A stretch of DNA of 64,000 nucleotides from IMG/VR virus record IMGVR_UViG_3300016674_000066; one strand, written 5' to 3'. Position 1 is the first letter of the stretch; each line of letters opens with the position of its first letter. Origin of the DNA: a virus (Duplodnaviria > Heunggongvirae > Uroviricota > Caudoviricetes). Below the pieces are notes generated by a model that worked only from the letters and a program-made list of their open reading frames with translations, searched no databases and was not told where the DNA came from. The position numbers and the translations under genes were made by a program. Positions 3 to 55,766 of the stretch are shown in pieces.

Positions 3-3000
3 GAGCAGGCCCTGGCCCGCATCGAGACCGTGGCCGAGTGGATGGGCGTGAACCTGGGCGACATCGCCCAAGGCGTCTCTCAGCAGAGCAACGAGCAGGC
101 AGGCCCTCCGACTCGTCCCCAGCAGGTCGGCCAGATGATCACGTCCACGCCTGGCTTGAGTGGTCAGGAGCGCGACGAGGCGCTGCAGTCGATGATGGCT
201 TGGCGCAACACTCGCCTGCCCGCCCGCACCCGCCAGGCCGCACTGGATCGCGCCCTCGAGATCGTTGGTCGCACCCAGGCACCGCAAGGCAGGGCCAACC
301 CGGATCGCCAGCCCGCCGTGATGCGCGACATCGCGCCGCAAGAGGGCGCGCCGGAGTACTTCCTGCGTGAAGCTGAGCGCCGCGAGGATGGCGCCTACCA
401 GTTCCGCGCTCTTGGCTATGACGATGAGGCTGATGCTCTACTGCTTGAGGCCGACAGCCTGCGTGAAGCCGCCGCCTCCGCGCGCGCTGGCACGCTGAAT
501 GTGGAGGACTCCGCAGAAGCTGACGCAGATATTGCTTCGCAATCAAGAGCACTTTCTGTTGACGAGGCAAGCGGAAGTTTGCCCCGTGTGCAGATCCCGG
601 CATCAACCGATCAAGAAATCGGCGAGGCCAGCACCGCGCTGCGCCGCAAGCGCAAAGCCCAGATTGCTCAGATCGTCGGCAACGGCTTCGACACGGTCGA
701 GCGCTCCGGCGAAGGCTTTGTCCTGCGCAACACCAAGACCGGTCAGAGCGTGATGCTCGACGGCATGGCCGATGCGCAGATCGCCCGCAACGCCATCAAG
801 GCGCGCGTCGACGAGCTCGCCAACACCGCTGCGGCCAGTCCACTGAACGATCGCCTGGAGCCCACCGAGGCCCAGATCAAGGCTGGCAACTACAAGAAGT
901 CCGACGTCATCGAGCTCAACGGCGTCAAGGTGGTCATCGAGAACCCGCGCGGCAGCGTGCGTCGCGGCGTGGGTGCCGATGGCAAGCCGTGGGAGACCAA
1001 GATGGCCCACCACTACGGCGAGATCGTTGGCACCGAGGGTGCTGACGGCGACCGCGTGGATGTGTTCATCGGCGATCGCCCGGCCAGCAACAAGATCTTC
1101 GTCATCGACCAGGTCAACCAGGATGGCACCTTCGATGAGCACAAGCTCGTCTTCGGCGCCGTCAGCGAGGCTGATGCACGCCAGACCTACTTGGCCAACT
1201 ACGACAAGGGCTGGACCGGTCTGGGCGCCATCAAGGAACTCCCGCTTGCCGACCTGAAGACCTGGCTCAAGGATCACGCCAAGAAGCCCGCTGCAGAAAG
1301 CGGCATGGGTGCCATCCAGGTTCGCGTCAAAGGCAAGACCTACACCGTCAGCGCTGTGCCGGTTGAGAGCCTGCCCGCGAGCTCTGGCGACTCTCCGTCG
1401 CGCGGCGTCAAGGGCGCCCAAATCACCAAGCAGCAGGCCATCCTGCTCAAGGGCCTGGCTGGCTTCTTCGGCAAGGACATCGTGTTCTTCTCCGACCCGC
1501 AGTCGAAGGTCGACTCGGACGGCTTCGTCATTCCTGGTGATGATGTCACGATCTACCTCAACGAGCGCTCCGGCATCTCCCCTCTGGCTGTGTTTGGCCA
1601 TGAGCTGATGCACATCCTGCGCAGCGACAACCCGGCTGCCTACGACGCCATCGCCAAGGTGGTTGCCGAGCGCGTGCAAGACCCCAAAGGCTTCCGCGAG
1701 AACTACTACGGCAAGGACTCCGCTGAGGCCAAGAGCGACGCCGCCCTGAGCGACCGCGACCTCGAGGAGCTGATCAGTGACCTCAATGGCGACCTGATGA
1801 GCGACGGCGCCTTCTGGCGTGATGTCTTCGCGAAGATCCAAGATGACAACGGCGCGCAAGCCAAGAGCATCATCGCCAACCTGGCGGCGTTCTTCCAGAA
1901 GATACTGGACGGCGCCATCGCCGCGATCAAGGGTCAGCCCAGCTTCCGTGCCAGCCGCTTCATCAACGATGCCGAGGCTGTGCGCAATGCCTTCCGCGAC
2001 GGCATGGCCATGTACGCCCAGGGCGCTGGCATCAGCAAGGCCGCCATGCAGGCTGAACTGCTCAAGGCTCAGCAGAAGCTTGGCGACATCAAGCGCTCAG
2101 CTCCGCGCCCTGACGACGGCCTGACGGTCGATGGCTACCACTTCAGCAAGCAGGCGCGCCAGATCCTGTCGACAGGCTTCTTCGGCACCGGACTGCAGGG
2201 CAGTGACCGCGAAGAGATCATGTCGAACCCCGACATGCGTCTGCGCCAGCGCCTGTCCTTCTACGTCAACAAGGGCACCGGCATTCGCCCGGAGTCTGGC
2301 GTTGGCCCCATTGCCCACAAGGCAACGCTGACCAACATCTACGACGCTGACGCGGACGTCAAGCGCCTGAAGCAGGGCCGAGACAAGCGCGCCTTCGAGA
2401 CCGCCGTGATCAACGCCGGTTACTCGGGCTACCTCACGCGCCTCGATGGCAGTCAGCCTGGCCAGGTCATCCTGCTGGGTAGCCAGACCGTGAAGACCGA
2501 AGTCCTCGGCATGCGTACGCAGATCGATGACGCCAAGGTTGTGCCGGCCATGGCCAAGCGCGACGCTGACCTGGGCGACAAGTTTTCCGCCCTGAAGATC
2601 CCGCTAAACGGCCAGCTGATTCCGCAGCGCTGGGCCCAGATGGTGATGGCGCGCGACCCTGAGTTGGCCGCGCAGCTGATGGATATCGGCGCCTTCGAGG
2701 GCGACAAGCCGATGTATCAGGACGAGTTTGTCGCCATGGTGCGGCAGAAGGTCGGCGCACCAAAGAGGCCCTCTGGTCTGCAGGCCGCCGGGATCGTCTT
2801 TAAGGCCGCAGACACAGGCCGAATCCTGATGGCAAAGCGCGGATCATCTGTTGCCAACCCCGGCACATGGAGCATCCCGGGTGGCGCCGTCGATGCCGGC
2901 GAGTCGCTCGAGGCCGCCGCATTGCGTGAGGCCAAGGAGGAGATCGGTTTTCAGGGCCAGGTCAAGCTTGCCCGGATCGCCGAAGCCAAGTTCGGCAACG

Positions 3001-6000
3001 CAACGTTCAACACCTTCATCGCAACGGTTCCATCCGAGTTCTCTGTTCGCTTGAACGGGGAAAACTCAGAGGCGAAGTGGGTGGACCCGGACTCACTGCC
3101 GGACGGGCTGCACCCCGGATTTAGAGATGTCAAAGACCTGGTTGTTGGCGCCGCAAAATCCAAGAATCCGGCCGCATTGAGCCTGGATGGAAGCGAGATC
3201 AAGCGAAGCGCGCAGCGCGCCAAGGACGAGTACGCCGAAGTCGAGGCCAAGTACAAGGGCACCGACCAATGGCTCAAGGCGCCCAACGGCGGAAAGACGA
3301 ATCTGACCGAGCGCCAGTGGGTGCAGGTCCGCACTCCGGCCTTCAAGAAGTGGTTCGGTGACTGGGAGGCTGCGATCGCCAAGGGCGGCGTCTGGGCCGA
3401 CGACAGCACCTCCAAGGTTGTCGACGAGAACGGCGAGCCGCTGGTCGTCTATCACGGCACCGACAAGGGCGGCTTCATGGAGTTCGAGCAGCCCGGCGGC
3501 ACTGGCCGTGGCGACTTCGGGATCTTCACGACGCCCAACTGGGATATGGCGCGCAGCTACGTTCGCAAGAACCGCGCAAACGCAGTTGTCGACAGCGATA
3601 CCTCCGAGGCTGGCGACCAGCCCGGCATCTACGCCCTGTTCCTGAACATCCGCAACCCCAACGAGAGCGACTTCGAGGGTGCGACATGGAGCGGCGAGCG
3701 CTTCGGCCAGTACCAGGTTCTCGACGAGGACGGTGAGCCCATCTACGACGAGGCAGGCAACGGCTTCTTCGATTACGAGACGGCAGAAGAGCTGCTTGAG
3801 AAGAATCCCGGCTCCTACATTGAGCAGGCTGGCAGCCACTACGAAACTACCGACTCGGTGGTGAGAGAGGCCTGGCGCTATAAGAACGACGGCGCCATCG
3901 TGCGCAACGTAGTTGACGACGGCGGTGGCCCTGGCGCCTACGACATGACGCCGGCCGACATCTTTGTGGCCCTGTCACCCAACCAGCTCAAGTCCGCCGA
4001 CTTCAATGGTGGCGAGTTCAGCGCTGAGTCTGACGACATCCGCCGCAGCACGTCGCGCGAGTACAAGCTCGCCATCGACCGGGAGAGTCGCGTCAAGGCG
4101 AAGGTGGTTCGTTTGCTACCTGAAGAGATTTCGGCAATCGAGTCGGACGCGAAGAAGTTTGGCCTGTCGACCTCTCAGGTGAAGTCGGTGATGGATAGTG
4201 CCAAGGCAACAAAGCGGCAGTATCCGGCGTCTGAGGGTTGGGCCCAGATCTCAGTCATCGGCATCAACGTCAAGAAGGATGACAATGGCAACATTGTCCC
4301 GAACAGCGAAGAGCCGAAGTTCAAGGAGATCTCTTACGGCTTCAACGTTCCGCCCGGAAAGACCCGTGCGTCGCCAAAGCTGGATGCAGATCTGGCTGGC
4401 AAGGTTGCCAAGAAGTTTGAGCAGCTCATCCTGGACGTCTACGACCGAGCCGAGTCTGGCGACAAGAACGCCCAGATCATCGTTGGGCACCAGACCTGGT
4501 ATCGCAACGTGGCCGAGGTTCTGCGGCGCGAGTATGGCGCGGCCGGTGACATGTTGGCCGACCTGCTTGGTGCAACTTCCCCGAATACGCCAGTAGACAC
4601 CAACTGGAAGTTCTCTATCGACATCATGCGCCGCTTCATGCGGGGCGACTTTGATGAGCAGCTGGAGAAGTTCTCTGCCTTTGTTGAGCGCGGTGGCGAC
4701 CCGTCAAAGTATCCGGCCGCAGACAAGATCCGCCAGATCAGCGGCAAGCTGTATGGCATGAACTCCACCAACGCCATGAAGGCGCTGGTTGATATGTGGC
4801 GGCTGATTGAGCCGGGCCAGGCTCCGAAGGCGCGCAACTTTGCGTTGAACCTGATTGGCCAGTCGAACATGGCAACGATAGACGTGTGGGCTGCGCGGAT
4901 GCTTCGTCGCGCTGCCAACATGGTGAGAGGCGTCAGCCTGCCACGCATCCCTCCTGTTGCTGAGACCGGAGTGACTGGCGCCTGGAACGCGGACAGCACC
5001 AAGGTGACTGGCGAGTTTGGCTTTGGCGCTGAAGTCATGCAGATGGTCTCTGACTCGCTGGCCAAGAAGGGCGTCGTCGTATCCCCTCCAGATCTGCAGG
5101 CGATTGCGTGGTTTGCTGAGAAAGAGTTGTGGGGCCAGAAGGGATGGACCACAAAGACCGGCGAAGGCGGGTCGTTTGAGGAGAACATCGAGGCAACTCC
5201 GGTTGAGCGATACCTGGCCGGATGGAGCATCCAGCAAGGCGAAAAGCGCCCCGAGGATGGCAAGGCCACCGTGGCGCAGGCCCGCGTCATGTCCATGCTG
5301 GTTGGTGATGACACGGTGCTGGCTGCGCGCGTCATGCCGACTTACGGTCTGTACGGCGGCACCATCGAGGCATCGTTCGATACCGAGTGGACGGCGCAAA
5401 AGGGCAAGCATGACCCGACGCTGGTGATGGCCGAGATCGCCAAGCTGGCGCAGGAAAACAATCAGTGGGACATCTTTGTGTCCAGGGTTGTGCAACCGAA
5501 CGAGGAAAACAGAAACGCACGCCCAGGCGTTGAGATCTACTTCCGCGACCGCAAGTCTCTCGACCAGGCCATGCCCATCCTGGAGCGATTCACATCGCGC
5601 GGTCAGGATGGATTTACAATGGCCGTTGACCCACGAGCCAAGAAGAAAGGGCTGGAGGATCAGGAATTTATTGGGGTGAGGCTCCAGTACGTTCCCGAGA
5701 TCTCGATGCGCTGGGATGAGTCCTTGCGCGAAGAGATCATGAAGCCTGGTGCGATTGAGCAGATTCTCGATGAGAAGCGCCAGCTTCTTCACGAGATCGC
5801 TCGCGAGGTTAGGTCCATGGATGGCGTGGCTTTCGCCTCCATGCAGCAGTACGACACGGTTGTCGTCGGAAAGGAAAACTACGATGAGTACATTGATCGA
5901 GCAACTGAGGAAGGACGTCAGGGAGCTCGAACGCAAGCATGGTTCGGACGACCCGTACGTCAAGGACTTGAAAGAGCAGTTGCGCGCCTCAGAGGAGAAC

Positions 6001-7070
6001 GCGAGCAAGCCGGCCGAGGAGGTGTACAAGATGCAGGCGACGCAGTTCAAGCCAAACCTGCCCTCTCGGCCGACGCGCAAGCAATTCTCGACGCAAGCGG
6101 AGTACGAAGAAGCCCTGGCCGGGTGGCAGAGCAGGGTCGGTCGGATCAAAGCTCTGGGCGCGAAAAAGACGGGAGCCTGAATGGCCTGCCGCGCGACTTC
6201 ACTGTCGCCGGCATCGACATCCGCGCCAGCCACTGGGCACCAGCCGAAGCTGTAGCGCGTCAGTACATGGAGCGCGCCGGTCTCGAGTACCGGCCTCCAG
6301 CCAAGTACGCCAAGGTCGACAAGGAGCGTGCCGCGCGCATCGCTGCCGAGTACGACCGCATGAAGCACGATCCGAAGAATCCTGTGGTCAAGGCTGCCTA
6401 TAAGGCCCTGACCAAGGAAACGATCGAGCAGTACCGCGCCGTCGTCGAGTCTGGGCTGCAGGTCGAGTTCATCGACTTCGCCTCCCAGGGCGACCCGTAT
6501 GCCGCCAGCCCGCGCCTCATGACCGAGGACGTGCGCAACAACAACCACATGTGGGTGTTCAGCACGCGCGACGGCTTCGGCACCGACGCATCCTTCGACC
6601 CTGAGGACAACCCGCTCCTGGCGGAAACCGAGTTCGAGATCAGCGGTCAGAAGGCCCTGGTCAACGACCTGTTCCGCGTGGTGCATGACTACTTCGGTCA
6701 CGTCAAGGAGGGCGTCGGCTTCCGCGCTGATGGGGAGGAGAACACCTGGCGCGCCCACAGCTCTATGTTCAGCCCGCTGGCTCAGCGCGCGCTGACCACC
6801 GAGACGCGCGGCCAGAACAGCTGGGTGAACTTCGGGCCCCATGGCGACAAGAACCGCACGGCATCTGCTGGCGAGACGCACTTCGCTGACCAGAAGACTG
6901 GCTTGCTGCCGCTGTGGGTGAGCGAGGACGGGCGCTACGACGAAGATGCCTCGGCTCAGCCTGACGACATGACGATCCGCATTGGCGAAGAGACTCAGAA
7001 ATCAGACGCCGACGAATACAATCAGCGGATCGCGGCACTCGAAGAGTTGATCGCCTGCCTCAACAAGTAA
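3..7070 (+). CDS. Giant multidomain 'polyvalent' virion/effector protein. It is 5'-partial: frame 0 is open from the window edge. Domains: inorganic-pyrophosphatase-like, HExxH zincin, Nudix, PARP-like ART, and a C-terminal module starting at 6181
   Basis: Frame 0 is open from nt 3 with high GC3. Motifs: ENPRGS...HHYGEI...DGDRVDVFIGD (PPase-like, about nt 930-1110); FGHELMHIL (HExxH, about nt 1600); GGAVDAGESLEAAALREAKEEIGF (Nudix box, about nt 2880-2950); VVYHGT...GDFGIFTTP...NPNESDF (H-Y-E ART-like, about nt 3440-3680). Confidence 0.75.
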   Translation, partial: EQALARIETVAEWMGVNLGDIAQGVSQQSNEQAGPPTRPQQVGQMITSTPGLSGQERDEALQSMMAWRNTRLPARTRQAALDRALEIVGRTQAPQGRANPDRQPAVMRDIAPQEGAPEYFLREAERREDGAYQFRALGYDDEADALLLEADSLREAAASARAGTLNVEDSAEADADIASQSRALSVDEASGSLPRVQIPASTDQEIGEASTALRRKRKAQIAQIVGNGFDTVERSGEGFVLRNTKTGQSVMLDGMADAQIARNAIKARVDELANTAAASPLNDRLEPTEAQIKAGNYKKSDVIELNGVKVVIENPRGSVRRGVGADGKPWETKMAHHYGEIVGTEGADGDRVDVFIGDRPASNKIFVIDQVNQDGTFDEHKLVFGAVSEADARQTYLANYDKGWTGLGAIKELPLADLKTWLKDHAKKPAAESGMGAIQVRVKGKTYTVSAVPVESLPASSGDSPSRGVKGAQITKQQAILLKGLAGFFGKDIVFFSDPQSKVDSDGFVIPGDDVTIYLNERSGISPLAVFGHELMHILRSDNPAAYDAIAKVVAERVQDPKGFRENYYGKDSAEAKSDAALSDRDLEELISDLNGDLMSDGAFWRDVFAKIQDDNGAQAKSIIANLAAFFQKILDGAIAAIKGQPSFRASRFINDAEAVRNAFRDGMAMYAQGAGISKAAMQAELLKAQQKLGDIKRSAPRPDDGLTVDGYHFSKQARQILSTGFFGTGLQGSDREEIMSNPDMRLRQRLSFYVNKGTGIRPESGVGPIAHKATLTNIYDADADVKRLKQGRDKRAFETAVINAGYSGYLTRLDGSQPGQVILLGSQTVKTEVLGMRTQIDDAKVVPAMAKRDADLGDKFSALKIPLNGQLIPQRWAQMVMARDPELAAQLMDIGAFEGDKPMYQDEFVAMVRQKVGAPKRPSGLQAAGIVFKAADTGRILMAKRGSSVANPGTWSIPGGAVDAGESLEAAALREAKEEIGFQGQVKLARIAEAKFGNATFNTFIATVPSEFSVRLNGENSEAKWVDPDSLPDGLHPGFRDVKDLVVGAAKSKNPAALSLDGSEIKRSAQRAKDEYAEVEAKYKGTDQWLKAPNGGKTNLTERQWVQVRTPAFKKWFGDWEAAIAKGGVWADDSTSKVVDENGEPLVVYHGTDKGGFMEFEQPGGTGRGDFGIFTTPNWDMARSYVRKNRANAVVDSDTSEAGDQPGIYALFLNIRNPNESDFEGATWSGERFGQYQVLDEDGEPIYDEAGNGFFDYETAEELLEKNPGSYIEQAGSHYETTDSVVREAWRYKNDGAIVRNVVDDGGGPGAYDMTPADIFVALSPNQLKSADFNGGEFSAESDDIRRSTSREYKLAIDRESRVKAKVVRLLPEEISAIESDAKKFGLSTSQVKSVMDSAKATKRQYPASEGWAQISVIGINVKKDDNGNIVPNSEEPKFKEISYGFNVPPGKTRASPKLDADLAGKVAKKFEQLILDVYDRAESGDKNAQIIVGHQTWYRNVAEVLRREYGAAGDMLADLLGATSPNTPVDTNWKFSIDIMRRFMRGDFDEQLEKFSAFVERGGDPSKYPAADKIRQISGKLYGMNSTNAMKALVDMWRLIEPGQAPKARNFALNLIGQSNMATIDVWAARMLRRAANMVRGVSLPRIPPVAETGVTGAWNADSTKVTGEFGFGAEVMQMVSDSLAKKGVVVSPPDLQAIAWFAEKELWGQKGWTTKTGEGGSFEENIEATPVERYLAGWSIQQGEKRPEDGKATVAQARVMSMLVGDDTVLAARVMPTYGLYGGTIEASFDTEWTAQKGKHDPTLVMAEIAKLAQENNQWDIFVSRVVQPNEENRNARPGVEIYFRDRKSLDQAMPILERFTSRGQDGFTMAVDPRAKKKGLEDQEFIGVRLQYVPEISMRWDESLREEIMKPGAIEQILDEKRQLLHEIAREVRSMDGVAFASMQQYDTVVVGKENYDEYIDRATEEGRQGARTQAWFGRPVRQGLERAVARLRGEREQAGRGGVQDAGDAVQAKPALSADAQAILDASGVRRSPGRVAEQGRSDQSSGREKDGSLNGLPRDFTVAGIDIRASHWAPAEAVARQYMERAGLEYRPPAKYAKVDKERAARIAAEYDRMKHDPKNPVVKAAYKALTKETIEQYRAVVESGLQVEFIDFASQGDPYAASPRLMTEDVRNNNHMWVFSTRDGFGTDASFDPEDNPLLAETEFEISGQKALVNDLFRVVHDYFGHVKEGVGFRADGEENTWRAHSSMFSPLAQRALTTETRGQNSWVNFGPHGDKNRTASAGETHFADQKTGLLPLWVSEDGRYDEDASAQPDDMTIRIGEETQKSDADEYNQRIAALEELIACLNK
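5884..6180 (+). CDS. Embedded small ORF in the +1 frame (98 aa, K/E-rich coiled-coil-like protein, MSTLIEQLRKDVRELERK...) lying inside the giant ORF
   Basis: High GC3 and a realistic amino-acid composition in frame +1. Over the same span frame 0 has AT-rich third codon positions and an R/G/A-rich low-complexity translation. RBS: GGAAAGGAAAActacgATG. Confidence 0.4.
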   Translation: MSTLIEQLRKDVRELERKHGSDDPYVKDLKEQLRASEENASKPAEEVYKMQATQFKPNLPSRPTRKQFSTQAEYEEALAGWQSRVGRIKALGAKKTGA

Positions 7071-7082
7071 CGGAGAAGCCAG

Positions 7083-10000
7083 ATGGCGCAATTGATGTCG
7101 ACCTCGTGCCTGAAGTTGGTCGCAAAAATCAACGAGAGAGACCAGGATGCGCTGCTCTCTCGCCTCGACGAGCTCCAGGCCCAGGGCATGCCGGCGCAGC
7201 GCGCCCAGATCCAGGCCGCCATCGATGTGCTCTCTGGCCTTCGCCGCGAGGCTGCAAACGCCTCGTCCATCCCCGAGGACCAGGACATCAACCCGGACCA
7301 GCCCGACATCAAGCGCAGCGCTGCCCGAGTCATCCCTGACTTCGTTGAAGAGAACATCGAGGACACGGAGTACCCGGGCTCGAAGTATGCGGAGTTCGAT
7401 GACGGAGCCGCGTACGTGAAGTTCTTTGCGGACAACAAGGGGGATCTGCGTGTCACGACGCTGAATACCGAGGGCTCAGATAAGGTGCGCGGGCGAGATG
7501 TGTTGCGCTGGCTTGGGCAGACGTACGGTCGCCCGATCCTGGTCAACGAGGTCGACCCTCCTGCGTCTGGCTTCTGGGACAAGATGCAGGATGAAGGCAT
7601 CATCAAGGACTGGTCCAGGGATGCGTATCGAGGCAAGACGTCTAGCTTGCCGGATACCGACATCAAGCGCAGCACCGGCAGAAGCGAGGAAGAGATCGCA
7701 GCCGCCAGGGCTGATGGCTGGACCATCGCCGACAACGACCTGCCGTCGCGAGAGGCTGCAGAGCGCATCGTCAAGCTTCGCACCAAGGGCAACAGCGTCG
7801 TCAAGCCGATGGCCGCCTGGCAAGGCGCTGAGGTGCGCGTTGTCGAGAGCGACAACCCCGGGTTCTGGGCGATCGAGGCTCGCCGACCCGACGCAAAGCG
7901 CAGCGCCGCGCGCGACATCACCCGCAGCCGCAAGCGCCAGCCATCTGAGATTTTCGGCCGAGAGATCGCGCCAGCTGCAATCCGCGCATACAAGTCACTC
8001 TCCGCTGGCGCCAAGTCGATCGTCGACGGCTGGAACGTCAACTGGTCCATGGGCCAGGGCAGGCTGCGCAACAGCAAGGACTTTGATGAGGTGGTCAAGG
8101 CCTATGAGCCGGTGCGCGAGAAGCTGCGCCAGGTGTACGGCAGCACCGTGCCGGCATTCCGAGGCGAGAAGCAGGACGGCACCGAAAGCACGGACGATCG
8201 ATTCCTGTTCTCATGGACGCCGATGCGCGACATTGCAGCCGGCTTCGCCGTCAACCGCCGCTACGGCATGCCGGCCGAGATCCCGCAGTCTAAGGTCGAC
8301 GAGCAGATCGAGGCGTACAGTAAGACGGGCATCGCCCGCCTGAATGGCTACAAGTTCGTCCGCAAAGATCCGGGCGACTACGAGCCCGACGGCCCGGACT
8401 ACTACTACATCTACCAGGGCGGCGAGATGATCACCGACGGTGACGACATCGCCCGGGCTCTGCAGCAGGAGAAGGATGAGCGCGACGCATGGATCGGCGA
8501 GTTGCGTGATGGCGGCAAGCTCTACGCCGGCAACATACCGGTTGACTCAGTGGCATTCATCCCTGTTGGCGCCAACCTGCGCCAGCCCGAGTTCGTTGCC
8601 GAGTACAACCCCCGCAAGGACGCGGCTGGCGAGATCCGCCTAAGCACCAAGCGCAACGAGCTCGGCTTCCATTCTGCTCTCGAGCGTGGCATCGAAGACA
8701 TGCAGACCAAGTCTGCTCTTGCCGGTGCCTGGAAGGCCCAGATCAAAGGCTTGGTCAACAAAGGTGCCGTGAAGCAAGACGAGGTCACCTGGTCCGGCAT
8801 TGAAGACTGGCTCGACATCCAGGATGGCAAGGTCACCAAGGATGCAATCGCCGAGTACCTGAAGCAGGGCGGCGTGCAGGTGGAGGAGGTGACGCTGGGC
8901 GCCGTGGAGACTGGGCCCCAGCTCGATGCCTGGCTCGAGAAGTGGTCAGAGGAAAACGATGGTGAAACCGCCAACGCCATCTACAACGGCCAGGCCTGGA
9001 GCTATATCCAGCGCATTGCAAAGCAAGAAGGCCACCAGGATGTTGTTGACCGCATCGAGGCTAAGGTCAGTGGTGCGGAGCCCAAGTACGGCCAGTACAC
9101 CCTGCCTGGCGGCGAGAACTACCGTGAGGTGCTGCTGACGCTGCCGCCGATTGGCGGTGTGAGGTACACCGAAGAGAACGTCATTGCCATCGACGACTCC
9201 GATGACCCGAAGCGGTCGCAATACTTTTGGCGCTTCAAAGTTCCTGGCAACGAGCTGCAGATCTCCAAGCAGGTCTACCGCACCCAAGAGGAGGCAAAGG
9301 CTTACATCCTGAAGGAGAAGCAGCCAGAACCGCCAGCAGACAAGAACTACCGCTCCAGCCACTGGGATCAGCGCAACATCCTCGCTCACATCCGCGTCAA
9401 CGACCGCGCCGATGCCGACGGCAAGCGCGTTCTGTTCGTCGAGGAGCTGCAGAGTGACTGGGGGCAGGAGGGCAAGAAGAAAGGGTTTGCAGACAAAAGT
9501 GTGAGCATGGCTGAACTGGCCAAGCAGTTCGACGAACTCAACCGAGAGCGCCGCACCCTTGAGCAGCAGATTGCGGAAGGCGACGACGCTGACCAGGCAA
9601 CTCAAGCGGCTGTTGAAAGGTCGGTTGATGTCAACCGCCAGATGGTTGCACTGTCTGACCGCATGGCCGCACTTCGCTCCGGCGTCCCCACCGCACCCTT
9701 TGTGACCAAGACCGAAGGCTGGCTCAACCTCGCCCTCAAGCGCGTCATCGCCATGGCGGTGGATGGCGGCTACGACGCAGTCGCCTTCGTCAATGGCGAC
9801 CAGTCGGCTGATCGGTATGACCTGAGCAAGCACGTCGATGAGTTGATGATAGAAAGGGATGGAGACAGCTTCAAGATTTCCATGAAGCCCATCGGCGGTT
9901 ACTACGGGGACGGCGGGCGCTGGAGCGGAAAGGTGCAAGAGCTACCAGACGTCTTGGGCAAAGAGCTTGCGGACAAGGTCGCAGCGCAGCCGGAAGGTCG

Positions 10001-13000
10001 GTCCTACATAAACGGTGTTGACCTCAAGGTAGGCGGCGAAGGCATGAAGGCCTTCTACGACAAGATCGTACCCAACGCTGTGAAAGCCCTGCTGAAGAAG
10101 GTGGGCGGAGAGCAGCTCGAGAAAGTCGGCATCCCAGACTCCAATGCTGGCCGCGAGGTTGTTGCAGCCAAGGTGCCGGGCGAAAATATGTGGGGCGTCT
10201 ACGATCGCCAGAAGGGTCAGTGGCTCGAGAGCTGGGACCGCGAGACCTACACATCTGACCCCGAGAATGCGGAGCTGACAAGCGAGAAAACGGCAAAGAG
10301 TATCGCTTCCGCGATCATGCGAGATGCCGGCGTTCTTCTGGAGCAACCCGGCTTCACCATCACCGACGCCATGCGCGAGAAGGTGGCAACCGAAGGCCTG
10401 CCGCTGTTCAGCCGCAAGCGCGACGTCACCGAGACGCCGGAGTTCCAGGCGTGGTTCGGTGACTCCAAGGTGGTGGACGCCGATGGCAAGCCGATGGTGG
10501 TGTATCACGGGACCGGCAAAGACTTCAGCGCATTCGGCGGCGGTTTTTCACCGGACCACGGGAGCGACGTTCACTTCTTCACCCCTGACCCGGATGTGGC
10601 GAATGGCTTTACCCCAGCAAGCGGCAATGGATCGGTAATTTATCCGGTCTATCTGTCGCTGCAAAATCCTGCTGAGCTTGATTTCTTTGGTGAGGACTAC
10701 GACGGAGAAGCCGTCAATGACGCGATAGACGAGGCGATCGCTGCTGGAAACGATGGCCTAATCATCACGAACATCAATGACGTGAAGGCATCGGAAATGC
10801 AGTACATCGCCTTCCGCCCAGAGCAGATCAAGAGCGCCATCGGCAACCGTGGCACCTTTGACCCAAGCGACGCAGACATCCGCCGCTCCACTGGCCGCAC
10901 CTTCACTGGTGCCGACTGGGACTCGCCCAGCGCCTCGAAGTTTGACGACCTGGTCTACAAATTCCAGGACAAGCTGATCGACACCAAGCGCGTGGTCGAG
11001 GCTATCAAGGACACGTCAGGCGCCATTGCTGACGACCTCGATGTCTACCTCCAGGAGGAGCTGTACCACGGCCGCGCCGCCAAGCGCACCGAGGACTTCG
11101 TGAACATGGAGCTCAACCCGCTGGTCGAGCAGCTGACCAAGGACGGCCTGAAGTTGGAAGACCTCGAGGAGTTCCTGCACGCCCGCCATGCGCCCGAGGC
11201 CAACAAGGTCATTGCCCAGCGCAACCCGGGCGTGGCAGGCCTCCAGGATGGCGGCTCCGGCATGAAGACGTCGGACGCCCTGGACTACATGACCACGTTG
11301 CCGGCAGACCTGAAAGCCAAGCTCGAGGCGGCAGCAGCCAAGGTCGACGACATCATCGCTCAGACCCGCAAGCTGTACGTCGACTACGAGCTCGAGAGCC
11401 AGGAGACGGTGGACGCCTGGGGCAAGATGTTCCAGCACTACATCCCGCTGCAGCGCGAAGACAAGGATGGCAGCGGCAGCCCGGGCCTGGGTCAAGGCTT
11501 CAGCGTCAAGGGCAAGGAGACCAAGGGCCGCACCGGTTCAACCCGCAAGGTGGTCGACATCCTGGCCAACATCGCCATGCAGCGCGAGAAGGCGATCGTG
11601 CGCGGCGAAAAGAACCGCGTGTCTCAGGCCCTGGTTGGCCTGGCCAGTGCCAATCCCAATGAGGGCTTCTGGACCGTCGACGAGGTGCCCACCGAGCGCG
11701 TGTACGACGAGCGCCTGGGTGTTGTGGTGGATCGCCCTGACCCGATGTGGAAGGCGCGCGAGAACACCATGGTTGCCAAGATCGTGGGGCCTGACGGCAA
11801 GGTCAAGGAGCACGCCGTCGTCTTCAATGAGGAGGACGAGCGAGCCATGCGGATGGCCAAGTCCCTGAAGAACCTGGACGCCACCCAGCTCGAGGGCCTA
11901 CTCGGCGTTAGCGCCAAGATCAGCCGCTACTTCGCCGCCATCAACACCCAGTACAACCCGGTGTTCGGCGTGGTCAACCTAGTGCGCGACGTCCAGGGCG
12001 CCGTGCTCAACCTGTCCTCCACTCCACTCGAGAACGACCGAGCCAAGATCGCCAAGGACACAGCATCCGCGCTGCGTGGCATCTATGGCGACGCCCGCGC
12101 CGCACGCAAGGGCAAGAACCCGTCGTCGGCCTGGGCGCAGCTCTGGGATGAGTTCCAGGAAGTCGGTGGACAGACCGGCTACCGCGACCTGTTCAGGACC
12201 AGTGCCGAGCGCGCGGAAGCCATCAAGAAGACGCTGAACCCGGATGCCTGGGCCGACAGCAAGCTTGGAAAGATCTTCACCGCCAACGGCGCACTGAAGG
12301 TGCCCATGGCCCAGGCCAAGCGCGGTGCCGGCTGGATCTTCGACTGGCTGAGCGACTACAACCTGGCCATGGAAAACGGCGTGCGCCTGGCGGCCTACAA
12401 GGCTGGTCTGGAGCGCGGGATGTCCAAGGAGCAGGCAGCATCGGTCGCCAAGAACCTGACGGTAAACTTCAACCGCAAGGGCCAGGTGAGCCAGCAGGCC
12501 GGCGCCATGTACGCCTTCTTCAACGCCTCGGTGCAGGGCACGGCGCGCATCGCCCAGACCATCTTCACCATGGAGCCTGGCAAGCCCAAGACCATCCGCC
12601 TGAGCCCCTTCGGCAAGAAGGTGGTGTACGGCGGCATGCTGGTTGGCTCCGTCCAGGCTCTGGCCCTGGCGGCTGCCGGCTTCGGCGACGAAGACCCGCC
12701 GCAGTTCGCCCGCGAGCGCAGCCTGATCATCCCGCTGATGAACGGCAAGTACATGACCATCCCGATGCCGCTGGGCTTCCACGTCATCCCCAACATCGGG
12801 CGCATCACCACCGAGTTCGTGTTGAGCGGATTCAGCAAGCCGCACGAGCGCGCACTGCAGCTGTTCGGGCTGTTCGCCGACACGTTCAACCCGATCGGCA
12901 ACGCCGGCATGTCCATGCAGACCCTGGCCCCCACGGCGCTTGACCCGCTGGTGGCGCTGACCGAGAACCGCGACTGGACCGGCAAGCCGATCGCCCGCGA

Positions 13001-13604
13001 GTCGATGAACCCAGCCACCCCTGGCCACGCCACGGCGCGCGACACGGCAACCGCCCTGTCCAAGTTCCTGGCCGAGGCCATCAACACGGCGTCCGGCGGC
13101 AACCAGTACGTGGCAGGCGTCTTCTCGCCCAGCCCGGACCAGATCGACTACCTGATTGGCCAGATCACCGGCGGCGTAGGTCGCGAGCTCTCGAAGGTTG
13201 AACAGTCATCCCTGGCCGCGCTGCGTGGCGAGGAGCTGCCCACCTTCAAGATCCCGCTGGTGGGTCGCTTCGTTGGCGATGCCAAGCAGCAGGCCAGCGA
13301 GGGCTCAGCGTTCTACGCCAACACCGAGCGCATCAACAAGGTGGAGACGGAGATCAAGGGCCTGCAGAAGGACGGCAAGTACGCCGAGGCGGCCGAGCTG
13401 CGCCGCACCAACAGTGACGCCTACCTGATCGCCGTGGCCAACCAGGCCGAGCGCCAGATCCAGAAGCTGCGTTCTGAGAAGCGAGAGCTGATCAAGAACA
13501 ATGCGCCGCGCGAGCAGGTGCGCGCCGTCGAGGAGCGCATCACCGCAGTGATGGCCCGTCTGAACCGTGCCGCCGAGAGACTAAGGGAGCAGCAGGGCAA
13601 CTGA
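7083..13604 (+). CDS. Second giant polyvalent protein (2173 aa) with repeated DIKRS(A/T)xR linkers, a PARP-like ART domain and a C-terminal coiled coil
   Basis: Uninterrupted ORF with high GC3. The motif VVYHGTGKDF...VHFFTPDPD...NPAELDF (about nt 10490-10690) is a paralog of the ART-like domain in the first giant protein. The D-I/A-K/R-R-S motif occurs four times. Confidence 0.75.
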   Translation: MAQLMSTSCLKLVAKINERDQDALLSRLDELQAQGMPAQRAQIQAAIDVLSGLRREAANASSIPEDQDINPDQPDIKRSAARVIPDFVEENIEDTEYPGSKYAEFDDGAAYVKFFADNKGDLRVTTLNTEGSDKVRGRDVLRWLGQTYGRPILVNEVDPPASGFWDKMQDEGIIKDWSRDAYRGKTSSLPDTDIKRSTGRSEEEIAAARADGWTIADNDLPSREAAERIVKLRTKGNSVVKPMAAWQGAEVRVVESDNPGFWAIEARRPDAKRSAARDITRSRKRQPSEIFGREIAPAAIRAYKSLSAGAKSIVDGWNVNWSMGQGRLRNSKDFDEVVKAYEPVREKLRQVYGSTVPAFRGEKQDGTESTDDRFLFSWTPMRDIAAGFAVNRRYGMPAEIPQSKVDEQIEAYSKTGIARLNGYKFVRKDPGDYEPDGPDYYYIYQGGEMITDGDDIARALQQEKDERDAWIGELRDGGKLYAGNIPVDSVAFIPVGANLRQPEFVAEYNPRKDAAGEIRLSTKRNELGFHSALERGIEDMQTKSALAGAWKAQIKGLVNKGAVKQDEVTWSGIEDWLDIQDGKVTKDAIAEYLKQGGVQVEEVTLGAVETGPQLDAWLEKWSEENDGETANAIYNGQAWSYIQRIAKQEGHQDVVDRIEAKVSGAEPKYGQYTLPGGENYREVLLTLPPIGGVRYTEENVIAIDDSDDPKRSQYFWRFKVPGNELQISKQVYRTQEEAKAYILKEKQPEPPADKNYRSSHWDQRNILAHIRVNDRADADGKRVLFVEELQSDWGQEGKKKGFADKSVSMAELAKQFDELNRERRTLEQQIAEGDDADQATQAAVERSVDVNRQMVALSDRMAALRSGVPTAPFVTKTEGWLNLALKRVIAMAVDGGYDAVAFVNGDQSADRYDLSKHVDELMIERDGDSFKISMKPIGGYYGDGGRWSGKVQELPDVLGKELADKVAAQPEGRSYINGVDLKVGGEGMKAFYDKIVPNAVKALLKKVGGEQLEKVGIPDSNAGREVVAAKVPGENMWGVYDRQKGQWLESWDRETYTSDPENAELTSEKTAKSIASAIMRDAGVLLEQPGFTITDAMREKVATEGLPLFSRKRDVTETPEFQAWFGDSKVVDADGKPMVVYHGTGKDFSAFGGGFSPDHGSDVHFFTPDPDVANGFTPASGNGSVIYPVYLSLQNPAELDFFGEDYDGEAVNDAIDEAIAAGNDGLIITNINDVKASEMQYIAFRPEQIKSAIGNRGTFDPSDADIRRSTGRTFTGADWDSPSASKFDDLVYKFQDKLIDTKRVVEAIKDTSGAIADDLDVYLQEELYHGRAAKRTEDFVNMELNPLVEQLTKDGLKLEDLEEFLHARHAPEANKVIAQRNPGVAGLQDGGSGMKTSDALDYMTTLPADLKAKLEAAAAKVDDIIAQTRKLYVDYELESQETVDAWGKMFQHYIPLQREDKDGSGSPGLGQGFSVKGKETKGRTGSTRKVVDILANIAMQREKAIVRGEKNRVSQALVGLASANPNEGFWTVDEVPTERVYDERLGVVVDRPDPMWKARENTMVAKIVGPDGKVKEHAVVFNEEDERAMRMAKSLKNLDATQLEGLLGVSAKISRYFAAINTQYNPVFGVVNLVRDVQGAVLNLSSTPLENDRAKIAKDTASALRGIYGDARAARKGKNPSSAWAQLWDEFQEVGGQTGYRDLFRTSAERAEAIKKTLNPDAWADSKLGKIFTANGALKVPMAQAKRGAGWIFDWLSDYNLAMENGVRLAAYKAGLERGMSKEQAASVAKNLTVNFNRKGQVSQQAGAMYAFFNASVQGTARIAQTIFTMEPGKPKTIRLSPFGKKVVYGGMLVGSVQALALAAAGFGDEDPPQFARERSLIIPLMNGKYMTIPMPLGFHVIPNIGRITTEFVLSGFSKPHERALQLFGLFADTFNPIGNAGMSMQTLAPTALDPLVALTENRDWTGKPIARESMNPATPGHATARDTATALSKFLAEAINTASGGNQYVAGVFSPSPDQIDYLIGQITGGVGRELSKVEQSSLAALRGEELPTFKIPLVGRFVGDAKQQASEGSAFYANTERINKVETEIKGLQKDGKYAEAAELRRTNSDAYLIAVANQAERQIQKLRSEKRELIKNNAPREQVRAVEERITAVMARLNRAAERLREQQGN

Positions 13605-18873: not shown

Positions 18874-19683
18874 TTACTTGCCGACGTTGACAATGCCCTT
18901 GAAGTCCTGGGGCACGACGATGGTGTTCACCTTTCCGGCCTTGATGGCTTCAGCGATCGTCAGCCCGGCCTGAGCCTGCATGTAGGAGATGGCGTTACCG
19001 TTGGCGTTCAGAGCTGCCACGCGCTCGGCTTCCTTGCGTGCCGTCTGCACCTCAATTTCCTTGGTCTTGAGCTCGTTCTGAGCGCGCACCAGCTCGTTGG
19101 CGGAGCGGATGATGTCGTCGGACGGCAGGACGTTGCGCACCTGTACGGCGCCGATCGTGATGGCGTGCGAGAGCTTCTGCTCGTTGAGCTCGGCGGTGAC
19201 GATTGCGCGGATCTCGGCTTCGATCTTGGCTCGGTTGTCGGCTACCTCGAGCGCCTTGTACTGGCGGATCGACTTGTAGGCCGCGTTATTCACCAGGGTC
19301 TCGATGAACCGGAACATCAGGTAGATGTCCTCCTTGCCAACATAGTGAAAGGCCATCGACTTCTGCGTGTACAACTCATTCACCGATGACGGGTTGATGC
19401 TGTAGATCGCGGTGACGTCGAAGTCCTTGAGGGCGGAGTTGTCGGCCGTCAGCGGCGTTTTGTTCTCGATCTCCATCGCGATGTCGCGCACCGGGAATGT
19501 GAGCACCTCGCCGATGATGGTCTGGTTCAGTGAGCCTGGCTGGAGTTCGGATGGGTTGACGGTCTTGTCGTACTGGCGACGCAAGCCGACCTCGCCGGTT
19601 TCAATGCGAGTGCATCCCGCGAAGACAAAGGCGGAGATGATCGCCAGGAAGAGTGTGAGTGAGCGTTTCATGGTGATACTCAA
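18874..19683 (-). CDS. Lipoprotein with an SPFH/band-7 domain (a stomatin/prohibitin/flotillin/HflC-like membrane-scaffold family)
   Basis: Lipobox LAIISAFVFAGC, followed by a band-7-like domain and a C-terminal coiled coil. Confidence 0.75.
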   Translation of the reverse strand: MSITMKRSLTLFLAIISAFVFAGCTRIETGEVGLRRQYDKTVNPSELQPGSLNQTIIGEVLTFPVRDIAMEIENKTPLTADNSALKDFDVTAIYSINPSSVNELYTQKSMAFHYVGKEDIYLMFRFIETLVNNAAYKSIRQYKALEVADNRAKIEAEIRAIVTAELNEQKLSHAITIGAVQVRNVLPSDDIIRSANELVRAQNELKTKEIEVQTARKEAERVAALNANGNAISYMQAQAGLTIAEAIKAGKVNTIVVPQDFKGIVNVGK

Positions 19684-33477: not shown

Positions 33478-34188
33478 TCAGTTCAGCAGCCCGGATCTCG
33501 AGAGCTGGTGTTTGGCCCACTCTCCGGCGATCCACTCGACTCCCTTTGGCGTCATCTTCACGTTGGTGTATGCGTGATTGGTGTCTTCGCTGATGCCGGT
33601 GGTGATGCGGAAGCGGCCTGCATCGATGTGGTTCTGGTAGGCCATCATCCGGCCCTGGAGTCGGTACATGATCCGCTCGGCAACAAGGAACTCGCGGAAC
33701 CTGGCTTCATTGGCGCCAAGAATTTTGCATACCTCGCGGAAGCCCTTCTCTCCGGTGGCAGCGTTCACGTACCGATCGACAAACTCGACGGCCGGCTTCT
33801 GCTGCTCGATCAGCTTTTGCTGCTCCTCGATCCTCTCGGCCTGTTCGGCCGCCAGGCGGAGGGCGCCAGAGAGGGTGGTTGGAACCTGGAATGCAGGCGT
33901 CGAGACCGCTGCCTCGAGCTCCTGCCAGCGGTCGATCACCCTGGCTGTGAACTCGGGGGAGAGCCTGGCCACCAGGACGAGGCTGTCTCGCTTGTTCAAG
34001 ACGAACTGCTTGTACGTCTGGCCATTCTGTTCGCTGACGTAGGGGGTCTCCTGAATTTCAGGACACACCCCAGATGCCTGCAATTCCCGGCAAATGACGG
34101 CGACGTTGTCGTGACGACGGCCGGTGATGGAGGCGATCTCGCGGCTGGTCATCGTGATCGATGGTCCGCTGTGGATAAGTTGGTTCAC
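33478..34188 (-). CDS. Phage antirepressor with an Rha N-terminal domain and a KilA-C C-terminal domain
   Basis: ITMTSREIASITGRRHDNVAVICRELQ (Rha) and VKMTPKGVEWIAGEW (KilAC). Confidence 0.8.
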   Translation of the reverse strand: MNQLIHSGPSITMTSREIASITGRRHDNVAVICRELQASGVCPEIQETPYVSEQNGQTYKQFVLNKRDSLVLVARLSPEFTARVIDRWQELEAAVSTPAFQVPTTLSGALRLAAEQAERIEEQQKLIEQQKPAVEFVDRYVNAATGEKGFREVCKILGANEARFREFLVAERIMYRLQGRMMAYQNHIDAGRFRITTGISEDTNHAYTNVKMTPKGVEWIAGEWAKHQLSRSGLLN

Positions 34189-43052: not shown

Positions 43053-43856
43053 ATGAAAAACTACATTGACCTTGTCGACAAAATCATCTGCACCGGAGAG
43101 CGCCGCCAGGACCGCACCGGCGTGGGCACGCTGTCCATCTTCGGTGGCAGCATCGAGTGGGATCTGCGCGACCGCTTCCCGCTGGTGACGGCCAAGGAGA
43201 CCCGCTGGCGCACCGCGTTCCTGGAGATGCTGTGGTTCCTGCGTGGCGAGAGCGCCATCGACTGGCTCAACAAAAACGGGTCGAAGCTCTGGGATGCCTG
43301 GGCCGATGATCGTGGCCGCCTTGGTCCCATCTACGGCGTGCAATGGCGCGGCTGGCCAGACAGCGAGGGCAACTACATCGACCAGGTTGCGGTCATGATC
43401 AACGGGATTGTCAGCAACCCGACTGGCCGCCGCCACATTGTCAGCGCCTGGAACGTAACCGACCTGGATGACATGGCTCTGCCGCCCTGCCATGCCTGGC
43501 ACCAGTGCTACGCCGGGGGCGACGAGTGGCTCGACATGCAGGTCTACCAGCGCAGCTGGGACGTTGCCCTGGGGGCTCCGTTCAACATCGCTCAGTATGC
43601 GCTGCTGTTGCATCTGTACGCCCGCGCCACCGGCCGCAAGGCGCGCCGCCTGGTGTTTGCCTATGGCGATGCCCACCTGTACCTCAATCACGTCGACACG
43701 ATGAAGCGAGTGGTCGCCGCCGGCCCGGTGTGGGGCGACAGTTCGCAGCTGGTGATCAAGACCGACAATACCGACATCGACGGGTACAAGATCGACGACT
43801 TCGACATCGTCGGCTACCACCCGCGCGAGTTCGTCAAGCTCGAGGTTGCCGTATGA
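43053..43856 (+). CDS. thyA: Thymidylate synthase
   Basis: GGSIEWDLRDRFPLVTAKE, VSAWNV, and LPPCHAWHQCY with the catalytic Cys. Confidence 0.85.
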   Translation: MKNYIDLVDKIICTGERRQDRTGVGTLSIFGGSIEWDLRDRFPLVTAKETRWRTAFLEMLWFLRGESAIDWLNKNGSKLWDAWADDRGRLGPIYGVQWRGWPDSEGNYIDQVAVMINGIVSNPTGRRHIVSAWNVTDLDDMALPPCHAWHQCYAGGDEWLDMQVYQRSWDVALGAPFNIAQYALLLHLYARATGRKARRLVFAYGDAHLYLNHVDTMKRVVAAGPVWGDSSQLVIKTDNTDIDGYKIDDFDIVGYHPREFVKLEVAV

Positions 43857-55412: not shown

Positions 55413-55766
55413 ATGAAGAATCCCGGTGACTTCGTGCTGACGATGATGAATGCGCGCACCGCCGCGCACATCGCCCACCTGCAGACCCAGAGCTACGCCG
55501 CCCATGTGGCGCTGGCCGGGTTCTACGAAGGCATCGTGCCGCTGATCGACTCGTTTGCCGAGGCGTACCAGGGCTGCTACGGCCTCATCAAGTTCACGGG
55601 CTCCAACTTCAAGCTGGAGAAAGACCCTGCGGTGATGCTGTCCGGCCTGAAGGACTTCATCAAGCAGGCTCGCATGGACTGCAACGAGCCCGCCCTGCAG
55701 AACATCATCGACGAGATGACCGCCCTGGTGGCCTCCACCATCTACAAGCTCAAACACCTGGCGTAA
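55413..55766 (+). CDS. Hypothetical protein (117 aa)
   Basis: ORF track. Confidence 0.45.
   Translation: MKNPGDFVLTMMNARTAAHIAHLQTQSYAAHVALAGFYEGIVPLIDSFAEAYQGCYGLIKFTGSNFKLEKDPAVMLSGLKDFIKQARMDCNEPALQNIIDEMTALVASTIYKLKHLA

Follow-up and report, generated by a model that had tools for sequence, protein, structure and literature searches.

The 64,000-nucleotide (nt) stretch of phage DNA analysed here (the window; IMG/VR record IMGVR_UViG_3300016674_000066, Caudoviricetes) carries two adjacent giant open reading frames (ORFs), ORF1 and ORF2, which belong to a class of proteins described in 2017 and already named and modelled in Pfam, the polyvalent proteins. It is probable that both are phage-type polyvalent proteins, made late, packaged in the head of a short-tailed phage in the style of phi24B, 933W and Bcep22, and sent into the host together with the DNA or before it. 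An SLT domain would then cut peptidoglycan, a chassis would deliver, a cargo would act early, and an HExxH domain would free the modules. Three observations carry this view, namely the domain content of the ORFs, their position at the end of the late operon and their homology to giants known to be associated with the virions of other phages, and the polyvalent-protein reading is therefore supported by hallmark domains, operon position and virion-associated homologues together.

The two genes and their junction are laid out as follows:

3..7070, plus strand: ORF1, the 3' 2355 codons of a polyvalent-protein gene whose 5' end is open
7071..7085, plus strand: the TAA stop of ORF1, then a GGAGAA Shine-Dalgarno sequence and the ATG of ORF2, in the same frame as ORF1
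7083..13604, plus strand: ORF2, a polyvalent protein of 2173 amino acids (aa)

Translation confirmed the coordinates of both giants as the original prediction had outlined them, and every motif that it had quoted from the letters was found in the order given. On its source contig ORF1 is 3059 aa long, and the C-terminal part of that protein (P0001) is identical to the window translation. The 704 N-terminal residues outside the window comprise an SLT lytic transglycosylase (Pfam PF01464, E 1.5e-7, above the gathering threshold, with ES, GGMQ and AYYYGG motifs) and then a Gly/Ala-rich conserved region. Read-through or fusion of the ORFs, which share a frame and lie 12 nt apart, was ruled out by the TAA and the following GGAGAA-ATG start; ORF1 and ORF2 are therefore two coupled genes, and their junction looks like translational coupling of separate genes, not read-through. 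The giant of the Stx phage Min27 of Escherichia (L005 1384-9772) is also split into two adjacent ORFs, of 1291 and 1484 aa. Such two-gene splitting may recur or may be an annotation or sequencing artefact, phi24B gp47 being reported as a single 2811-aa protein.

Each chain holds at least two unrelated effector domains. ORF1 combines the SLT with inorganic-pyrophosphatase-like (InPase), Nudix, ADP-ribosyltransferase (ART) and DUF7178 domains, and ORF2 combines an ART with LPD38. Pfam matches were counted above the curated gathering scores, which PF18760 (twice), PF18823, PF18857 and PF01464, all typical of the class, exceed. The ART-PolyVal, InPase and LPD38 families were themselves defined from polyvalent proteins (Iyer, Burroughs, Anand, de Souza, Aravind, 2017, J Bacteriol, PMC5512222), and the same study lists InPase, LPD38 and lysozyme as phage-type only and already noted the association of InPase with Nudix. 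The polyvalent architecture that had been proposed from the sequence is borne out by these hallmark domains of Iyer et al. (2017) and by the late-operon position. The modules of the two chains are listed below, with residues of InPase, Nudix, ART and DUF7178 numbered from the window translation:

867..1271, plus strand: InPase (family I inorganic-pyrophosphatase-like, polyvalent-protein clade), PF18823, aa 289-423, E 4e-50
1272..2090, plus strand: zincin-like HExxH region, a candidate processing metallopeptidase, with HELMH at nt 1599-1613 and a junction motif directly after
2091..2780, plus strand: conserved unannotated module upstream of Nudix, full-length aa 1401-1630, in 20 of the first 120 homologues, no Pfam match
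2784..3122, plus strand: Nudix hydrolase domain, PF00293, aa 928-1040, E 3e-17, with an intact Nudix box GAVDAGESLEAAALREAKEEIGF
3423..4019, plus strand: ART-PolyVal 1 in ORF1, PF18760, aa 1141-1339, E 2.5e-15, H-aromatic-D type with a long insert
4404..4904, plus strand: DUF7178 domain, PF23802, aa 1468-1634, E 4e-9, inside a cargo block of ~690 aa (full-length aa 2051-2738)
6168..6971, plus strand: highly conserved C-terminal domain of ORF1, with invariant N-D..R.VHD.FGH...G..F...GEEN.W..H and E-T.GQ.SW
7083..10475, plus strand: unannotated N-terminal cargo of ORF2, with a leader (aa 1-76), small modules (aa 77-271) and modules at aa 272-517 and 519-1115
10476..10859, plus strand: ART-PolyVal 2 in ORF2, PF18760, aa 1132-1259, E 3e-22, with H1142, F1165 and D1224 in conserved columns
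10899..13601, plus strand: conserved C-terminal LPD38 module of ORF2, aa 1273-2173, phrog_14770, E 3e-192
12621-12677, plus strand: transmembrane (TM)-like hydrophobic segment of the LPD38 module
12693-13259, plus strand: Pfam LPD38 core, PF18857, ORF2 aa 1871-2059, E 3e-39

In the profile searches on which the original prediction had staked its domain claims, InPase, Nudix and ART were found and a zincin fold was not confirmed. The pyrophosphatase-like motif set corresponds to PF18823, whose profile is matched over its full length (1-135/135); ENPRGS, HHYGEI and DGDRVDVFIGD are all present, and the acidic D-x-D-x-x-D cluster (DGDRVDV) is among them. A further match of this domain is to gp19, the portal of Pa193, in its C-terminal part (E 3e-31); in Pa193 an InPase is fused to the portal protein, as it is in BcepF1 (Iyer et al., 2017, PMC5512222). 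PDB entry 9b41 was tried as a source of an InPase structure and set aside, the InPase part of the Pa193 portal being without density. Similarly, the box G-x5-E-x7-R-E-U-x-E-E-x-G-U (GAVDAGESLEAAALREAKEEIGF) and Nudix matches in the PDB uphold the canonical Nudix box.

The two ARTs align at 30% identity (E 8e-17), so that the second protein does contain the predicted paralogue of the first. Across 62 sequences of the family, H1142 and D1224 (the Asp of 'NDG') are each conserved in 61/62, and the aromatic column 1165 holds F in 30, Y in 21 and W in 9, with Phe in both copies here. The Glu of NPAELDF and NPNESDF falls in a variable column (V 19, R 11, E 9, D 9). With a His in strand 1, an aromatic residue in strand 2 and an Asp in strand 5, both domains fall in the H-Y-D clade (Tox-ART-HYD2/ART-PolyVal) described by Iyer et al. 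(2017, PMC5512222), and the conserved catalytic Glu of the PARP/diphtheria-toxin-like H-Y-E type is missing. As such, the proposal of a PARP-like ART stood as to the ART domain, found twice by PF18760, and fell as to the PARP-like type.

The HExxH region is a probable metallopeptidase (MPTase) at the level of its motif, the fold level being unconfirmed. In an alignment of homologues, the G-HExxH and the downstream Glu and Asp are invariant in 17/17 (H110, E111, H114, E166). An AlphaFold model (pLDDT 85) orders a helix, strands, the HExxH helix and a later Glu-bearing helix, a layout similar to the minimal zincin core of Iyer et al. (2017, PMC5512222). The features expected of an MPTase, an HExxH on a helix (placed there by the AF2 model) and a downstream Glu ligand, are thus kept across homologues. 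No Pfam model matches the ORF1 copy and a profile search of the PDB finds nothing; Peptidase_M48 is weakly matched by 4/17 homologues (best E 5e-4), and Foldseek with the model returned a best E of 0.3, with ZMPSTE24 and Ste24 at E 0.8-1.4 and none significant. Hence the FGHELMH motif named in the original prediction holds, its G-HExxH being invariant in homologues, and its zincin fold was not confirmed by profile or fold searches.

The C-terminal domain of ORF1, for which there is no Pfam model and no solved fold relative, is one of a very large family. An exhaustive profile search with it returned 5243 clusters at 50% identity, of which 3283 reached E <= 1e-30; most of the best matches are giants of 2000-4300 aa. 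There are also stand-alone proteins of 250-340 aa that cover ORF1 aa 2760-3027, and in two unrelated phage contigs their genes adjoin the portal gene, immediately after it. The position just past the portal gene is the usual site of head-packaged minor proteins. These stand-alone copies therefore support the idea that the domain may work as a free unit inside heads. Four stand-alone homologues (P0193, P0209, P0231 and P0247) share an N-terminal peptide, M..F(N/D)PNE(P/A)RD.HG(R/K)W, which may be a head-targeting or docking signal. The domain is conserved enough to surface at the DNA level across distant phages: megablast of the giants against phages gave a sole match, 275 nt in this domain, to an Octadecabacter phage. 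This only nucleotide match of the giants to a cultured phage lies at window 6659-6933 and is 76% identical over the 275 nt to Octadecabacter Antarctic BD virus 1. The matched gene is labelled 'lysin containing a beta/gamma crystallin motif', a label that may be misleading.

Comparison with relatives separates conserved ends from a variable middle. A homolog search with ORF1 gave 217 giants at E <= 1e-10, and the analysis drew on the best 120; these carry InPase/ART/LPD and other LPD domains in shuffled combinations. Coverage of ORF1 peaks at aa 200-560 (88/119 homologues), outside any enzyme domain, and about 46 of the same homologues carry the LPD38 module of the ORF2 type. This conserved N-terminal stretch includes a glycine-zipper-like hydrophobic segment with a weak C19orf12 match. 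In tblastn searches, the C-terminal ~900 aa of ORF2, from about aa 1265, matched Stx-converting podophages at 31% over ~830 aa (E 5e-94), Bacillus phage Dartukuta at 58% and Methanosarcina virus MetMV at 43%; Burkholderia and Ralstonia phages were also among the matches, and the SLT region is common to 23 Ralstonia phages. The N-terminal cargo of ORF2 has no Pfam, PHROG or PDB match, a homolog search with the N-terminal 1206 aa gave just 9 matches, and its homology with other giants breaks at about aa 192, 518 and 1114. Pfam scans of the unannotated modules found nothing beyond DUF7178. Both conserved ends occur in one protein with other cargo between them in P0018 (5234 aa), in P0023 (Piscinibacter prophage, 4393 aa) and in the Dartukuta giant. 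Judged by these alignments, the conserved N-terminal region and the C-terminal LPD38 module appear to frame swappable cargo, and in relatives the content of both ORFs is one protein.

The closest relative, a 78,437-bp contig, gives the sharpest view of this exchange. Its giant is 90% identical to ORF1 over aa 1-1620 and 89% over aa 2705-3059. ORF1 aa 1621-1716, within the Nudix module, have no counterpart in this protein (P0002), which itself has no Nudix Pfam match, and aa 2097-2704, most of the DUF7178 block, are replaced by other sequence. Furthermore, ORF2 aa 112-1109 are replaced by ~110 aa in P0124, the closest relative of ORF2. The pattern is that of a putative delivery frame that is conserved and a payload that apparently changes fast.

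ORF1 and ORF2 are encoded with virion morphogenesis genes. The exact ORF2 protein was found on an 82,398-bp metagenome contig (ENA ERZ27292641 k141_133284), and an independent assembly from a second sample (ERZ27292636 k141_433224) is exactly 82,398 bp too, with another start point; two assemblies of this length with different starts therefore suggest that the source phage genome is complete and circular or circularly permuted. An uninterrupted plus-strand run leads from the small and large terminases (TerS, TerL) through the portal, the major capsid protein, two SU10-type adaptors, the tail fibres and a 611-aa protein to ORF1 and ORF2. Past the window end it consists of an 866-aa protein, S74-type and gp38-type fibre genes, the 611-aa protein (which has no Pfam match) and the two giants. 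The strand switches directly after ORF2, the giants being the last two genes of the late operon. It had been predicted that late transcription would reach them if the genome were circular, and their place at the end of the run from terminase to tail fibre agrees with this.

Homologues in cultured phages place such proteins in the virion. phi24B gp47 (2811 aa, with LPD5, LPD1 and LPD38) is abundant in virions by mass spectrometry (MS), invisible in cryo-EM and a proposed ejection protein (2026 preprint). Burkholderia phage JC1 gp69 (4515 aa) is virion-associated by MS and is the last virion-module gene before reverse-strand genes. Given the virion-associated homologues in phi24B and JC1, packaging of ORF1 and ORF2 is a well-founded inference. 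The likeness to the large protein of phi24B and the 933W group of Stx phages (LPD5/LPD1/LPD38 with a MuF-C metallopeptidase) lies in the homologous LPD38 module; moreover, in Min27 the counterpart is a large gene that lies downstream of other virion-region genes and shares their strand, and the tail of phi24B is built to a similar plan, with a pair of paralogous adaptor genes or rings, although no InPase, Nudix or ART has been reported for gp47. The 'DarB-like' giants of Bcep22 and JC1 (Lessievirus) likewise come last in the virion module, followed by reverse-strand genes, whereas JC1 gp69 is a single ORF whose annotation, the only basis of comparison, implies other domain content. With the polyvalent proteins of Iyer et al. 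the two giants share many unrelated enzyme domains per chain, the ART-PolyVal, InPase, LPD38, lysozyme/SLT and HExxH types, and a neighbourhood of virion genes; unlike them, the content here is split over two coupled ORFs, the cargo includes a widespread C-terminal domain that has no Pfam model, and a defined junction motif is visible. T4 Alt and the other internal proteins of T4 and the inner-body proteins of phiKZ-like phages would also be comparable as head-packaged, injected proteins, but Alt is a single-domain ART of the R-S-E clade (Iyer et al., 2017, PMC5512222).

On this basis, a course of events can be proposed. The giants would be synthesised late, alongside the virion proteins, and packed into the head. 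At infection, the N-terminal SLT of ORF1 would open the peptidoglycan, and the Gly/Ala-rich hydrophobic N-terminal region of ORF1 together with the LPD38 module would form the delivery chassis, engaging the envelope and helping to build or cross a conduit. The variable middle would be cargo, made up of InPase, Nudix, the two H-aromatic-D ARTs, DUF7178, the conserved enzyme-like C-terminal domain and several further modules, and it would act on the host's nucleotides and proteins during the first minutes after infection. Once this cargo has reached the cytoplasm, the embedded HExxH domain would probably cut the chains at nine D-I-[KR]-R-S-x-x-R junctions and free the modules. InPase and Nudix would hydrolyse pyrophosphate-containing small molecules, and the two ARTs may modify host macromolecules using NAD+.

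The giants might instead be mainly structural ejection or internal-core proteins, in the role of T7 gp14-16 or P22 gp7, gp20 and gp16, that build a trans-envelope conduit for DNA and carry enzyme domains as minor passengers. T7 gp16 is a large internal core protein that is ejected and has an N-terminal lytic transglycosylase; ORF1 shares that domain, a likeness of domain type and not of alignment, while gp16 has no array of effector enzymes. The best-conserved parts of the giants, the N-terminal region and the LPD38 module, are non-enzymatic, a TM-like segment and a glycine-zipper-like stretch are present, and the authors of the phi24B study propose a conduit role for gp47. However, the catalytic motifs are intact (InPase, the Nudix box, the H and D of the ARTs, HExxH), and the turnover of cargo between close relatives fits conflict-driven effectors. 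The structural-ejection and effector roles are compatible. A mainly structural function deserves serious attention, though we judge it unlikely.

Other identities fit much less well. The best-named PHROG match of ORF1 is phrog_10089, 'DarB-like antirestriction' (E 1e-41), and relatives in Ralstonia phages are labelled DarB-like in GenBank, but the match is limited to ORF1 aa 187-436, a stretch that includes the InPase (aa 289-423). The methyltransferase and helicase that would identify a DarB are absent from the Pfam and NCBIfam matches of either ORF, so this identity was rejected; the label appears to follow giant size and shared accessory domains, and it is very improbable that these are DarB-like anti-restriction proteins. 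Tape-measure or tail-fibre proteins, which the original prediction had named as an outcome that would overturn it, could be suspected from the large size and the position after tail fibre genes, yet no fibre, tape-measure or receptor-binding domain was matched in ORF1 or ORF2, where the matches are enzymatic. The phage also has a tail module of the podovirus type: it has two SU10-type adaptor genes as in phi24B, the S74 and gp38-type fibres have genes of their own, and none of the called genes has a Pfam match of the tail-tube or sheath type. On these grounds the identity was rejected, and we find it scarcely credible.

The proposed release of the modules by the HExxH domain depends on a short motif that recurs at their boundaries. 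Its strict pattern is [DEG]-[IAV]-[KR]-R-S-[ATP]-x-R, with the core D-I-[KR]-R-S-x-x-R, and there are eight strict copies and one variant copy:

2085..2108, plus strand: junction motif 1, DIKRSAPR, after the zincin-like region
3195..3218, plus strand: junction motif 2, EIKRSAQR, after Nudix
4035..4058, plus strand: junction motif 3, DIRRSTSR, after ART 1
6099..6122, plus strand: junction motif 4, GVRRSPGR, ~20 aa before the ORF1 C-terminal domain
7305..7328, plus strand: junction motif 5, DIKRSAAR, between ORF2 N-terminal modules
7659..7682, plus strand: junction motif 6, DIKRSTGR, between ORF2 N-terminal modules
7890..7913, plus strand: junction motif 7, DAKRSAAR, between ORF2 N-terminal modules
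8631..8654, plus strand: junction motif 8, EIRLSTKR (the ninth, variant copy), at the ORF2 aa 518 breakpoint
10875..10898, plus strand: junction motif 9, DIRRSTGR, after ART 2, at the start of the LPD38 module

Shuffled sequences would give 0.002 strict copies in ORF1 and ORF2, where 8 were counted, and the remaining 13.9 k residues predicted in the window contain none. Breakpoints of homology with other giants at about ORF2 aa 192, 518 and 1265 are motif positions. Different copies use TCA, TCC or AGC for the junction Ser and differ in their Arg codons too; conservation, and thus selection, therefore acts at the protein level. Within the homolog set at least two copies occur in 36 proteins, both ORFs included, often in a protein-specific flavour (for example, five xKFSLK copies in P0117 and five I[RK]KS copies in P0015), and agreement in motif class is 65% within a protein versus 40% between proteins. 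Proteins that share this zincin type have a 2.7-fold higher motif density (p 5e-8), and in 12 homologues a copy lies no more than 2 residues from the end of the zincin profile. In 162 further giants, collected via the C-terminal domain, the motif was enriched, with 25 versus 2.9 at 21-40 residues upstream of the C-terminal-type domain and 13 versus 2.9 directly downstream.

We propose the junction copies as candidate processing sites, with a structural or packing role as a live alternative. A role for MPTase domains in processing polyvalent proteins was put forward by Iyer et al. (2017, PMC5512222); the word 'linker' is absent from their text, and its three uses of 'cleavage' concern other subjects. 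Taken to its full extent, the proposal would make the giants true polyproteins, in which [DEG]-[IVA]-[KR]-[RFYKL]-S-x-x-[RK] stands at every module boundary and is read by the embedded HExxH peptidase after packaging or ejection; the junctions would also be the units of swapping between phages, and the chassis would carry a self-releasing, exchangeable payload. We hold this version tentatively, at less than an even chance. A parallel is found in T4 (gp21) and phiKZ (gp175), where a phage protease processes head proteins at short consensus sites. There a prohead protease does the processing, whereas here the candidate protease is embedded in its substrate; no prohead protease was detected in the virion module.

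It is possible, and not far from an even chance, that the junctions are not cleavage sites at all and that the motif is a structural cap or linker at module ends, a basic patch for packing against DNA or capsid, or a by-product of module recombination. In the ARTs as a family, a conserved C-terminal extension (Q-x-K-S-A..N-x-G-x-F.....D-I-x-x-S) contains the motif, many giants are without the motif, and cleavage at the junctions is itself deduced from sequence. N4 vRNAP, ArdC and TraC1 have MPTase domains and yet are delivered uncleaved (Iyer et al., 2017, PMC5512222). However, the motif adjoins unrelated domains (the zincin, Nudix, the C-terminal domain, the ORF2 N-terminal modules) and lies in segments of low model confidence. 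Mixed Ser codons speak against DNA-level recombination signals, and copies co-vary within one protein, as expected of a shared reader such as a protease.

Several findings weigh against the proposed packaging, ejection and self-processing of polyvalent effectors. About half of the 5232 residues of ORF1 and ORF2 are without annotation after the Pfam scans, and packaging and ejection are extrapolated from homologues. In both ARTs a Phe stands in place of the Tyr used to define the clade. The association of zincin type with motif density is confounded by relatedness, the motif lies within 60 residues upstream in only 37/165 copies of the C-terminal domain in other giants, and Stx phage Min27 has DIRKG, without the Ser, at its LPD38 boundary; from the last two findings it follows that the motif is not universal. 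Finally, the Nudix falls below every NCBIfam equivalog cut-off, with generic or MutT-like models as its best weak matches. The scores are 22.9 bits versus 169 for NudE and 23.2 versus 158 for NAD+ diphosphatase, and none of the ADP-ribose- or NAD-specific Nudix subfamilies (NudE, NAD+ diphosphatase, NadM-Nudix) is indicated; NCBIfam and PADLOC scans of the giants gave sub-threshold Nudix matches only. Because the Nudix is below all equivalog cut-offs and its best matches are generic or MutT-like, the earlier idea of an NAD- or nucleotide-directed toolkit is speculation.

The surrounding genome adds some observations of its own. Phage genes in the window include the small and large terminases, the portal, a scaffold-like protein, the major capsid protein (Phage_capsid_4), a holin and a lysozyme, with RdgC, an SPFH protein, SSB, YqaJ and RecT on the opposite strand. 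The SU10-type adaptor genes (PF24175) are tandem paralogues (window 61116-61751 and 61755-62405). In phi24B there are two paralogous adaptor rings (2026 preprint); the pair here mirrors those two stacked rings, resolved with near-identical folds, and suggests the same tail plan. A DUF5856 gene (55413-55766; phrog_858, 'starvation-inducible transcriptional regulator') sits at an unusual site between the large terminase and the portal. The tail-fibre cluster encodes a 281-aa protein with a match to Pfam TctC, the substrate-binding protein type of tripartite tricarboxylate transporters (L006 3025-3870, outside the window), which could be a solute-binding fold co-opted for receptor binding. Elsewhere in the window there are genes for a thymidylate synthase (43053-43856, E 4e-92), the SPFH/Band_7 protein beside the recombination genes (18874-19683, minus strand) and a Rha/KilAC antirepressor-type protein (33478-34188, minus strand). 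A hint of a betaproteobacterial host comes from the GC content of ~61% and from homologues in Piscinibacter, Limnobacter and Burkholderiales. Megablast of the structural region against phages gave no match, and there is no close cultured relative.

ORF1 and ORF2 are a clean, well-placed example of their class and confirm that such giants close the late operon of podophages in the style of phi24B and Bcep22. Near-identical phages differ by exchanged cargo, a segment of the Nudix module among it, and this points to modules under current selection. The C-terminal domain of ORF1, very common (~5200 clusters at 50% identity), strongly conserved, enzyme-like and also found as a stand-alone protein, offers a testable lead. 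Similarly, the junction motif turns the idea that MPTase domains process polyvalent proteins into a precise, testable question. If the junctions are indeed processing sites, they would give polyvalent proteins their first defined processing code, and both the boundaries of modules and the free effectors could then be predicted in thousands of uncharacterised giants.

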